64,000 bases of DNA, taken from sequence record OZ335960.1. One strand, 5' to 3'. The translations under genes and the position numbers were made by a program. The stretch comes from a phage. Of this stretch, positions 21,816 through 35,141 are shown piece by piece (position 1 is the first letter of the stretch; every line of letters begins with the position of its first letter). The notes beneath the pieces are model-generated. The model was given only the letters and a program-made list of their open reading frames with translations. It made no database searches and was not told the origin of the DNA.

Positions 21816-22150
21816 TCACAAGATGTAGATGAACAACTAGAATCACAAGAACTTCCACATGAATCGCCCGTCCATACATGAATAGGAACATTAGTGTCAT
21901 ATGAATCAGAACTAGACTGTGCATTCTGTGTATTAGATGATGTAGGTGTTGACCAGCGCCAAGGATTTTTATAATATTCCTGGGCTTCTTCATAAGTCAT
22001 AGTAACTGCTTCTACTGTTCCATCTCCCATATAAACATATTCAACTACAGTTAAAGGAAGGTAGTCATTTGAAATAGGAACTACACCTTCTCCGGGAGTT
22101 GTAGAGAAAAAATCCGTAAAGAAACTTTTAAACCAATTAAAGATAAACAT
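21812..22150 (-). CDS. hypothetical protein with Cys/Ser-rich C-terminal tail, 112 aa
   Basis: C-terminus [18 protein letters not shown]. Confidence 0.5.
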
Positions 22151-31209: not shown

Positions 31210-33906
31210 TCAGCCAAACAGGAAGTCTAACGAAGCTTTTTCCTCATAGTCCATACCTGCCGATTCACACATACCCGCAAGCGGTTTAACAAACGATTTT
31301 TGGAACAAAGTTGAGTAGTCAATCCAAGACAGTACGTCAGAACGAATTTCCTTTGGAAGTTCTGTGCCTGACGGCCAAGCAATGCACTTATCACCAAATG
31401 GATTTCCTTCACGTAATGGAAGAACCATTACCTTATTTCCATCCAAAATTGGAGCTACACCTAAACCGCTAACAGCTCGACGATAAGTTAGCACACCACG
31501 AATATGGAACGGACATTTAAATCCTGGCCAACCTTTATCATCATATTTCGCTATATCGTTCGCAGTTTTTACTTCAGCAATAACTTTATAGTCAAGTTGA
31601 CGATATTCTTTCTCAAAGTTCTTGTAGTATTCTTGGACAGACTCTTCGCCTTCCTGAAGAATACGACGAATACTTTCTTCGAGAGCTTCTTGCACTGCTT
31701 TTGGTGTTGAACTTTGCTGAGTTTCCATACCCATGATTTTTAGATGCGGTTCAGCAAATCGCTTATCTTCCATATCATAAACGTTCAGAGCATAACGTTT
31801 TTTCGCTTTCCAAAATCCACCAACACCCTTTGAACCAAGCGGAGGGCAAGAAATAGCTTCACGGTCCATATGCATCAGATGCTCGCGGTTATTCATATAG
31901 TCACATAACTCACGATATGCAACATCAATCATCGGTTCCATCTTTTTCTTACCGAACTGATTCATGAATTCAACTAAATCATTTTGTTCTTTAAAGCGGT
32001 CAAGACCTACTTTTTCAATTACTTTATCTACACAAACATATACCGAATCAGTATCACCTGCTGCGATGAAATCTTCACCATTAGTTCCACATACTTTATT
32101 CAGATATTCATTAATTTTGCGAGCAATCCATTGAATACCGACTTGACCGAAAATTGTGATAGCAGTAGCATTTCGCAAATCATAGTAGCGAAAATGAATA
32201 TTACCAAGAGCACCATAAAGACTGTTAATAAGAATTTTACGGTTCAGCTGATTTGTGTTAGCAAGCGTAGCTGCTTTTTCACATTCTTCGATCAGACTAT
32301 TAAGAACAGATTCAGTGTAATTCGATAATTCGTTTAAGAAATCATCATTGAACTTAACATATCGTTCAACTTCCGGTTTAGTTGAACAAGACCCTGCACC
32401 TTTCATAATAATTTTTTTAATAGCTTCGGCATTCATTTCTTCCGCGAACATTTTCTTTTTCCAATCTTTACGCTGGAAAAATACTTTAGCGATTTCCTTT
32501 GGAATGATACCTTCTTGGTGCTTATCATACATCCATCCATTCGGAGAACAAGAATATTCATCACTTGGCTTAGGAGCTGTTCCTGCGATATATTCATGAA
32601 TTGGATGAACTTTAAACTGCCCACGAATAGTCTCAGGACTAATGTTAACCTGACGAATAATGCTAGGATACAGAGACGTCAAGTCAAAACTCATAATGTA
32701 TCGACGAGCAATCGGTTTAGGTTCAAACACAAATGCACCTGGAAAACTCTGTTTAACGTGCGAACCTTGTTGAGGAATAACCTTATGTTCACCTTTCAGT
32801 GAGTTAAAAATAATAGCATCCCAAGTTTTAATAGGACTCATTACACCAGAAAAAGGCATTTTAGCGTAATAAGACATACTTAAAACTAGATCGATAAACC
32901 CACGAATTTTATCAATTGCTTGAACTGATTCTACGTCAATGATGTTATAACTAATGTATCGTTGATGATTAGTCTCACGAAGTTTATTAATAGGACCATC
33001 ATACGGCAATTTACCTTTTTTGGTTTCATGTTGAGCAACTGATTCCAAAGAGAACGATGGCAAATTAGTAAATGCGAATTTCTTGTACAAATCTAAATAA
33101 TCAAGAATAGATACACCATCAATAGAATAAATTTCTTTGCTACCGTACATATTTTGAATTAGTTTAGATTTTACTCGACCGATTGGAGAGAAGCGTTTCA
33201 TACTACGTTCACCGAGAACCATTTTAACACGATTCATGATATACGGAACGTCAAATCCCTCAATATTCCAACCAGTAAAAATAGCAGGTCGTTTCTGTTC
33301 CCAGAGATTAATATATTCCATGAGCATATCACGCTCACTATCAAATGGCATATAAATTACTCGGTCAAGAATTTCTTGAGGAACTTCATCACCACCTTCA
33401 CAGTCAAGCTTAGCAGCTAACTTTGCATCCCATTTTGATACTGAACCGTACATTGAATTCAACAAATCAAAGACGTAAAAACGGTCGTCAATTGAATCAT
33501 AATGAGTGATAGCATCAATTTCATATTCTGCTTTCATTGGGTCAGGAAATTTATCACCAGTAACCTCAATGTCACAGTTAGCTACACGAACAAATTTTCG
33601 GTCATAAACAATTTCTGAACCATATGTATCACTGATATAAGCGAGTTTAAAATCGTTCATACCGAGAGCTTCGAGACCGATGTCTTCCATTCGCTTCATC
33701 CAGTCTCGCGCATCTTTCATTGATGGAAATTTTTGAGGAGCGCAATTTTTACCATAAATGTCTTTGTATTTTGACTCTTCCTTACAATGCCTAAACATAG
33801 TCGGAAGATATTCTACTTCGCGAGTACGTTCCTTTCCGTTTTCATCAATATAACGCTCAACAATATTATTTCCGACTGTTTCGATAGAGATATAAAATTC
33901 TTTCAT
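31210..33906 (-). CDS. 43: DNA polymerase gp43 (family B)
   Basis: 898 aa as T4 gp43; exonuclease motifs and polymerase YGDTDS. Confidence 0.95.
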   Translation of the reverse strand: MKEFYISIETVGNNIVERYIDENGKERTREVEYLPTMFRHCKEESKYKDIYGKNCAPQKFPSMKDARDWMKRMEDIGLEALGMNDFKLAYISDTYGSEIVYDRKFVRVANCDIEVTGDKFPDPMKAEYEIDAITHYDSIDDRFYVFDLLNSMYGSVSKWDAKLAAKLDCEGGDEVPQEILDRVIYMPFDSERDMLMEYINLWEQKRPAIFTGWNIEGFDVPYIMNRVKMVLGERSMKRFSPIGRVKSKLIQNMYGSKEIYSIDGVSILDYLDLYKKFAFTNLPSFSLESVAQHETKKGKLPYDGPINKLRETNHQRYISYNIIDVESVQAIDKIRGFIDLVLSMSYYAKMPFSGVMSPIKTWDAIIFNSLKGEHKVIPQQGSHVKQSFPGAFVFEPKPIARRYIMSFDLTSLYPSIIRQVNISPETIRGQFKVHPIHEYIAGTAPKPSDEYSCSPNGWMYDKHQEGIIPKEIAKVFFQRKDWKKKMFAEEMNAEAIKKIIMKGAGSCSTKPEVERYVKFNDDFLNELSNYTESVLNSLIEECEKAATLANTNQLNRKILINSLYGALGNIHFRYYDLRNATAITIFGQVGIQWIARKINEYLNKVCGTNGEDFIAAGDTDSVYVCVDKVIEKVGLDRFKEQNDLVEFMNQFGKKKMEPMIDVAYRELCDYMNNREHLMHMDREAISCPPLGSKGVGGFWKAKKRYALNVYDMEDKRFAEPHLKIMGMETQQSSTPKAVQEALEESIRRILQEGEESVQEYYKNFEKEYRQLDYKVIAEVKTANDIAKYDDKGWPGFKCPFHIRGVLTYRRAVSGLGVAPILDGNKVMVLPLREGNPFGDKCIAWPSGTELPKEIRSDVLSWIDYSTLFQKSFVKPLAGMCESAGMDYEEKASLDFLFG

Positions 33907-33961
33907 AGATATTCCTTAGTTTATAGCCCGAGTTATTAGGCTCTTGATATATTATACTCCA

Positions 33962-33981
33962 AATAAGGGGCCGAAGCCCCT
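33962..33981 (-). terminator. UUCG-loop hairpin
   Basis: GGGGCUUCGGCCCC on minus strand. Confidence 0.5.
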
Positions 33982-33984
33982 TGC

Positions 33985-34206
33985 TTAAATTAATACCAGT
34001 TGTCGGTGAAAAATTGTTAATCCATCTGCATTAATTGACTTAACCACTGCGGTAAAGTGTTTTTGTTCTGGGTGAACTAATTTTTGAAATTCTACCTGAA
34101 ATTTTAGTTGGAGGTTTTCTGGTAAATCAAAAAGTGTTTCTGTTGCAGAAAGATTATATTTTTCTTTAAGGGACGCCATGTATTCTTGCGGAGTTATAGC
34201 AGTCAT
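33985..34206 (-). CDS. small ORF between regA and 43, 73 aa
   Basis: ATG 1 nt after regA stop; ends 4 nt before UUCG hairpin. Confidence 0.4.
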   Translation of the reverse strand: MTAITPQEYMASLKEKYNLSATETLFDLPENLQLKFQVEFQKLVHPEQKHFTAVVKSINADGLTIFHRQLVLI

Positions 34207-34207
34207 A

Positions 34208-34576
34208 TTAATTACCAATCGTATATTTAGGAACGAGTTTCCATTCATGTTTTTGTTTAAAAGAAATAACTCGGAAGTTATTGGTTAAATCTTTCATAAA
34301 AGTTCTTTGACCAGGAACGATTTCAATCAGTCCCCAATCTTCTAACAGCCACGCAATCGAATCACGACGAACTTCATCTTCTTCTGTCATTTCAACCTGA
34401 CGGCCATCCATACGAAGCATTTCTTTAAAATGAACGATATAGTATAGTCCTTTTTTCTGAAGAATGTGGCAGGACTGATACAGAACTTTATCTTTATTAT
34501 TAGCAATTCCCATACGAGTCAAAGTTTCTTTTACTTTCAGAAAATCTTCAGGTTTTTTAAGAGTAATTTCAATCAT
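34208..34576 (-). CDS. regA: translational repressor RegA
   Basis: 122 aa as T4 RegA; position 62-regA-43. Confidence 0.85.
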   Translation of the reverse strand: MIEITLKKPEDFLKVKETLTRMGIANNKDKVLYQSCHILQKKGLYYIVHFKEMLRMDGRQVEMTEEDEVRRDSIAWLLEDWGLIEIVPGQRTFMKDLTNNFRVISFKQKHEWKLVPKYTIGN

Positions 34577-34577
34577 T

Positions 34578-35141
34578 TTACCATTCCAATGCTAGTTTTT
34601 TGAGTTGTTTCTGTTCTTTTACATTCTTAGTCACTTCTTTCAAAAAATCATCCGTGACTAAACCTTTTAGTTCTTTTAATACTAAAGGAAGTTTTCCATT
34701 TTTAGTAAGAATTGATTTATAGTTAATTGCATCATTTGTATTAACTTGATACCGCTTAGCAAGTAACTTAATAATCAATACTTCGGTAGAATCTTCGACC
34801 AGTTTTGCCCATTTACCATATCTTTTACCCCGAGGAACAGCAGCCATCAGATAATTAAAATGGGCTTCATCGCTTAAACCTGATCCAATTAAATTCATCG
34901 CATATACAGCTGGCATGCATTCAGGAAATTGTGATAATGCGTTCTCAACCATGTATTTTGAATAATCTTTTTGAGCAATAGAGCATTTAGTTTTATTATT
35001 AATAGCTCCAATTATTTCAAAAAATTCATTTTCAGCTTTTTCCTTAAAAGAATCAGCAGCAGATTGGACAGCTGTCCAATCTTTTGAATACCAAGCAACT
35101 TGATGCTCGTTTAATTGAATATCATCTTCAAATAAGCTCAT
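34578..35141 (-). CDS. 62: clamp loader small subunit gp62
   Basis: 187 aa as T4 gp62. Confidence 0.9.

Follow-up and report, generated by a model that had tools for sequence, protein, structure and literature searches.

orf43.1, a small accessory gene in a three-state slot between regA and gene 43 of T4-type phages

Why does a phage whose RegA is 100% and whose gp43 is 99% identical to that of T4 carry, between the two corresponding genes, an open reading frame that is missing from T4, and is this frame a gene? The window, i.e. the whole stretch of 64,000 nucleotides analysed here, is a T4-type (Tequatrovirus) segment whose replication cluster lies on the minus strand, with gene 62 at 34578-35141, the translational repressor gene regA at 34208-34576 and gene 43, which encodes the 898-residue DNA polymerase, at 31210-33906. 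The reading frame in question, orf43.1, is located on the same strand at 33985-34206, with regA as its upstream partner and gene 43 as its downstream neighbour. It consists of 73 codons beginning with the ATG at 34206-34204 and closed by the TAA at 33987-33985, and its product (MTAITPQEYMASLKEKYNLSATETLFDLPENLQLKFQVEFQKLVHPEQKHFTAVVKSINADGLTIFHRQLVLI) has 73 residues, a mass of 8.4 kDa and a pI of 6.3.

The initial annotation, made from the letters of the window, had described a 73-residue frame that opens 1 nt after the regA stop codon, ends 4 nt before a UUCG hairpin and fills a gap of about 300 bp, at a place where no gene of T4 was known to it. The coordinates bear out this geometry: a single base (34207) separates the regA TAA (34208-34210) from the ATG, four bases (GCAA, 33984-33981) separate the orf43.1 stop codon from the GGGGC-UUCG-GCCCC core of the hairpin, and the regA-43 interval measures 301 nt (33907-34207), composed of 1 + 222 + 78 nt. 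The statement on T4 is also correct. In T4 (NC_000866) the interval is 78 nt long with no gene inside and the hairpin comes directly after the regA stop codon, whereas in the window orf43.1 is placed between the two. The alignment gives the window 223 extra nt with respect to T4, extending exactly from the regA stop codon to the base of the hairpin; past orf43.1, the remaining 78 nt match T4 at every base, among them those of the UUCG hairpin and of the operator with its AAUAACUC loop. T2 and T6 align across the T4 junction in one piece, without a break. Across the T-even genomes, the 223 nt are absent from T4, T2 and T6, and homologues of the gene are kept elsewhere.

Coding potential and identity of orf43.1

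Could such a frame be open by chance, in AT-rich DNA that codes for nothing and whose 223 nt only keep regA apart from the gene 43 leader or act at the RNA level? Stop-free runs of at least 73 codons arise in 3.6% of the shuffled versions of the interval, so that the length of the frame is by itself weak evidence, and T4 manages without the segment. The pattern of substitutions argues strongly the other way. The Nei-Gojobori dN/dS ratio lies between 0.02 and 0.35 in all pairs with at least 10 substitutions, within as well as between clades (a value of 0.55 is found in one pair, which has six substitutions), and is thus far below 1 in many independent pairs; between genera the synonymous sites are saturated and the protein is still alignable. 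Six residues (K14, L19, F26, D27, L28 and E30) do not vary among 27 family sequences. Judged by these patterns, orf43.1 is evidently under purifying selection. The GC contents of the three codon positions (0.51, 0.26 and 0.22) resemble those of regA, a periodicity that is shared with the neighbouring genes and likewise speaks against a chance frame, and frame 0 gives the best codon usage. A curated Pfam family and a confident AlphaFold2 fold complete the case, and we consider an origin by chance to be effectively refuted. The dN/dS values, the Pfam match, the syntenic homologues in five named genera and the GC periodicity together sustain the earlier proposal that the small frame is a real gene.

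The gene is in fact already known: it is named, and it is catalogued in both Pfam and PHROG. Orf43.1 matches PF25760, "Phage RB18 ORF43.1 protein", with 101.5 bits (gathering cutoff 27) and E=2.4e-29 over residues 5-73 of 73, and phrog_3826, of category 'unknown function', with E=2.4e-37, its residues 1-73 falling on positions 1-73 of the 73 in the profile. The RB18 gene (PF25760, Phage_RB18_ORF43; PHROG 3826) and the window gene share family, size and position between regA and gene 43. By tblastn, the RB18 copy (NC_054906.1) is 95.9% identical over 73/73 residues, and between the window protein and its counterparts in RB18 and RB32 one to three residues differ, i.e. nothing substantive. The same frame is annotated as 'similar to RB18 43.1' in RB32 (RB32ORF047c) and as 'ORF43.1' in ime09, the exact 73-residue protein is present in NCBI for several phages as "hypothetical protein", and Orf43.1 is annotated in hundreds of genomes. 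The gene was reportedly first described, as "variable orf43.1", by Miller and Jozwik in 1990 (J Bacteriol 172:5180), under the title 'Sequence analysis of conserved regA and variable orf43.1 genes in T4-like bacteriophages'; our search of the full-text literature returned no paper on orf43.1.

In some GenBank annotations the gene is extended to 87 residues from an ATG at 34248, located within regA in a different frame. This extension overlaps regA and is probably mis-called: stop codons interrupt it in several lineages, and the ATG beside the regA stop codon is therefore the conserved start.

The initial annotation took interruption of the frame in close relatives as the sign against a gene. 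Interruptions are indeed encountered, in rare cases, among the annotated copies of JB75 (P0006), PhiZZ23 (P0007) and GADU22/KK4 (P0002), which are frame-disrupted; on the other side stand about 178 records with a high-identity protein match. The JB75 copy looks like the result of a 1-nt loss in an A-run, as judged by the window codons. The PhiZZ23 copy is probably truncated after residue 40 by a change of CAA to TAA, and the GADU22/KK4 copy looks like a frameshift in the last codon with readthrough via the hairpin and the operator into the start of gene 43. These disrupted copies may fit dispensability and a real decay of the gene, or they may be sequencing errors. Altogether, we hold with high confidence that orf43.1 is a true gene, small, accessory and dispensable, within the replication cluster of the T-even phages (45-44-62-regA-orf43.1-43). 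The question with which we started is thereby closed, the frame being real and previously named, and T4 is without the gene because the slot is polymorphic and, in T4, empty.

A slot with three states

Matches to the region occur in about 505 phage records. Within Tequatrovirus, 178 records carry the allele found in the window (allele 1), 69 carry a second allele and, by subtraction, about 258 are in the empty state of T4. The three states share nearly identical flanks up to the regA stop codon and from the hairpin on, and the high identity of RegA and gp43 to T4 holds regardless of the presence of the ORF. Allele 2, found in RB51, ECML-134 and slur07, encodes a protein of 78 residues that belongs to the same Pfam family; it occupies the same slot, is followed by the same downstream hairpin and lies between DNA flanks that are almost identical. 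Its protein differs from that of allele 1 by an 8-residue insertion near the N-terminus, with an identity of 43-47% between the two. The slot is thus a cleanly bounded, three-state cassette set between nearly invariant and heavily studied elements, the regA stop codon on one side and, on the other, the UUCG hairpin, which forms its right-hand boundary, with the gp43 operator. As orf43.1 is missing from about half of the Tequatrovirus genomes, it is dispensable, and since the slot is empty in the Mosigvirus RB69 as well (gap of 81 nt), any function of the gene must be conditional.

In RB32 the gene likewise stands between regA and gene 43. Outside the closest relatives of the window, syntenic homologues (regA-ORF-hairpin-43) with 28-75% identity are distributed over Tequatrovirus (as allele 2), Dhakavirus, Karamvirus, Kanagawavirus and Moonvirus, as seen in ECML-134, the Dhakavirus JS98, the Karamvirus CkP1, the Kanagawavirus IME523 and the Moonvirus Merlin, and metagenomic T4-like contigs display the same order. 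Related ORFs are also detected by tblastn in VR7, SP18 and Edwardsiella phages, with 45% identity to the Moonvirus-type protein (P0033), these matches being found by sequence alone, irrespective of their position. The occupation of the same slot in five named genera makes the locus itself old.

How did T4 come to differ from the window? The ends of the 223-nt segment bear a short imperfect repeat (GGTAATTAA / GGTATTAATTTAA), which could mediate a simple deletion yielding the exact T4 junction, and a loss in T4 would on this account be the more parsimonious direction. The reverse direction, a recent gain in which a laterally acquired cassette was inserted between regA and the hairpin, so that T4 would not have lost an ancestral gene, draws on the precise boundaries and identical flanks of the segment and on the affinities of the alleles: allele 1 is nearer to the non-Tequatrovirus contig L015 (75% identity) than to allele 2 (43%), and the nearest relative of allele 2 is in Dhakavirus (54%). 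These affinities across genera indicate a lateral replacement of alleles. A recent gain is, however, difficult to reconcile with a slot that is occupied in five named genera and with a repeat that permits the simple deletion, and both a mobility gene and a target-site duplication are absent at the segment; we judge it unlikely. The pattern rather suggests an old locus whose alleles are swapped by recombination in the conserved flanks. In the history that we favour, the empty state of T4 would have arisen by loss, and the variable alleles would be exchanged via recombination in the flanks that all of them share.

The window as a whole appears to be a Tequatrovirus mosaic that is identical to no record in the collection; between positions 22000 and 46000, no deposited phage covers most of the 24-kb stretch above about 98% identity.

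The junction with regA and the leader of gene 43

Genes 44, 62, regA and orf43.1 are chained in the window by three stop-N-ATG junctions with one spacer base each: TGA-T-ATG between 44 and 62 (spacer 35142), TAA-A-ATG between 62 and regA (34577) and TAA-T-ATG between regA and orf43.1 (34207). The last of these, at 34204-34210 on the minus strand, is a putative termination-reinitiation junction. The 1-nt spacing and the apparent lack of a strong Shine-Dalgarno sequence are features that the putative regA/orf43.1 pair has in common with the coupled chains of T4, such as 44-62-regA; the difference is that the downstream gene orf43.1 is dispensable, whereas 62 is not. A TAA-N-ATG or TAATG junction is found in 13 of the 16 loci compared. 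The most economical reading, drawn from this geometry only, is that orf43.1 is translationally coupled to regA, as the initial annotation had supposed.

A real gene could also dispense with coupling, either by using a weak ribosome-binding site of its own or by being controlled directly by RegA at its AU-rich start (AAUUAAUAUGAC). In some lineages the spacer does contain AAGG or AGGA: that of allele 2 has 10 nt with AAGG, and that of the metagenomic locus L016 has 97 nt with AGGA. These two homologues would evidently be translatable independently, and coupling is therefore not obligatory for the family. In the window, however, the sole Shine-Dalgarno-like element before orf43.1 is a GGU located 8 nt upstream, and the 1-nt spacing is the same as in 44/62 and 62/regA and is conserved across genera. 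As to a control by RegA, the start region of orf43.1 in the window may be partially similar to the SELEX consensus of RegA (AAAAUUGUUAUGUAA). The bases upstream of the start are also constrained by the C-terminus of RegA, so that no RegA site can be deduced from their conservation. For the window gene, translation from its own site or under direct RegA control therefore seems unlikely to us.

The expression that we propose for orf43.1 begins with its transcription on the same early and middle polycistronic mRNAs as regA. Ribosomes terminating at the UAA of regA would restart 1 nt downstream, and this would be the main route of orf43.1 translation; the output of orf43.1 would then track the translation of regA, which is itself repressed by RegA. 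At the other end, the C(UUCG)G hairpin (AAGGGGC-UUCG-GCCCCUU, 33965-33982, minus strand), which RNA folding predicts directly 3' of the gene, would mark or stabilise the 3' end of the orf43.1 message, upstream of a separately controlled gene 43 leader. The folding gives it a 7-bp stem (AAGGGGC/GCCCCUU) that begins 2 nt past the orf43.1 stop codon. Lacking a U-run, the hairpin was not called as an intrinsic terminator in our scan; it is more likely a 3' stabiliser or a processing boundary. A tetraloop hairpin (UUCG, UACG or UCCG) stands 3' of the ORF in all the lineages compared, followed in most of them by GGAGTATAAT.

This last element, in which GGAG, at 33957-33960, directly precedes TATAAT, is located in the window at 33951-33960 on the minus strand, downstream of the hairpin and upstream of the gene 43 operator, and most of the compared lineages (loci L003-L016) retain it. 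GGAG is the recognition motif of RegB. The element could be a candidate RegB cleavage site, a -10 element for the transcription of gene 43, or both; RegB processing is reported to stimulate gp43 synthesis (review PMC3014915). The gp43 translational operator, described in the same review (PMC3014915), is predicted by RNA folding as the hairpin AGCCU-AAUAACUC-GGGCU at 33925-33942 on the minus strand. Scans of the surroundings for a late promoter (TATAAATA) and of the regA-43 interval against Rfam gave no late promoter nearby and no meaningful match, respectively.

The Orf43.1 protein

With the family alignment as input, AlphaFold2 gives a model of Orf43.1 with a pLDDT of 88.2 and a pTM of 0.71, in which helices at residues 6-16 and 30-44 are followed by strands at 50-58 and 64-72. 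The protein is thus predicted with high confidence to adopt a helix-helix-beta hairpin fold; it is soluble, and no transmembrane segment is seen. Relatives are confined to phages: among 1.84 billion representative proteins, HMMER with the profile retrieved only eight real clusters, all of them small phage proteins, and in BFVD the only matches, the Edwardsiella phage PEi26 being one of their sources, are members of the family and uncharacterised proteins from T4-like phages. The top match of the profile search, a protein of 3009 residues (P0031), carries 49 copies of a 61-residue unit; weak repeats add up to its score, and the match is therefore an artefact, not a relative. The sequence profile search of the PDB returned nothing below E=0.4, Foldseek with the Orf43.1 model returned nothing in the PDB at E<=0.001, and neither NCBIfam nor, at E<=10, the PADLOC models for defence and anti-defence systems matched the protein. 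When the window was translated in six frames and searched with a profile, the gene itself was recovered and no paralogue.

What could such a protein do? It is likely too small and too featureless for an enzyme; we would guess that it binds, in stoichiometric amounts, some macromolecule of the phage or the host and thereby brings an advantage under certain conditions. A more specific role is suggested by its location within the cluster of the clamp, the clamp loader and the polymerase: Orf43.1 could be a modulator associated with the replisome, with the invariant TLFDLPE motif as its contact to the gp45 sliding clamp. Residues F26, D27, L28 and E30 of this motif are conserved in 27/27 sequences, and the motif is similar to the C-terminal end of RB69 gp43 (KKASLFDMFDF) and, more loosely, to that of T4 gp43 (SLDFLFG), two peptides that bind the clamp. 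Clamp-binding peptides of this type, [ST]L(DF|FD)[LM]F, are terminal or disordered. The likeness is worth noting because of the place of the gene in the clamp and polymerase cluster. It is, however, weakened by the model, in which TLFDLPE is internal, in an ordered region of high pLDDT just before helix 2, and where F-D-L-P-E reads as a helix start with a hydrophobic staple and a capping box, a structural reason that suffices for the invariance. Moreover, the polymerase C-termini differ between T4 and RB69, whereas the Orf43.1 motif is invariant. TLFDLPE is probably a helix-capping motif, and clamp binding by Orf43.1 appears to us very unlikely.

Stated more broadly, Orf43.1 might work together with its neighbours, as a regulatory factor or an accessory of the replisome, and would act either on the gp45 clamp through TLFDLPE or by binding RegA or gp43 and tuning the repression of the replication genes, possibly with a new small fold, a possibility raised by the lack of a relative among the solved structures. 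We regard this combination as very unlikely. If it were true, the polymorphism of alleles and empty slots would represent a host-dependent tuning of replication-gene expression, and a role connected with RegA, gp43 or the clamp would make a modest addition to a classic system. The residual interest of the gene resides in a conserved 8-kDa protein without structural relatives inside a core replication cluster. In the window, TLFDLPE corresponds to residues 24-30 of Orf43.1, encoded at about 34117-34137, and the C-terminus of gp43 is encoded at 31213-31233.
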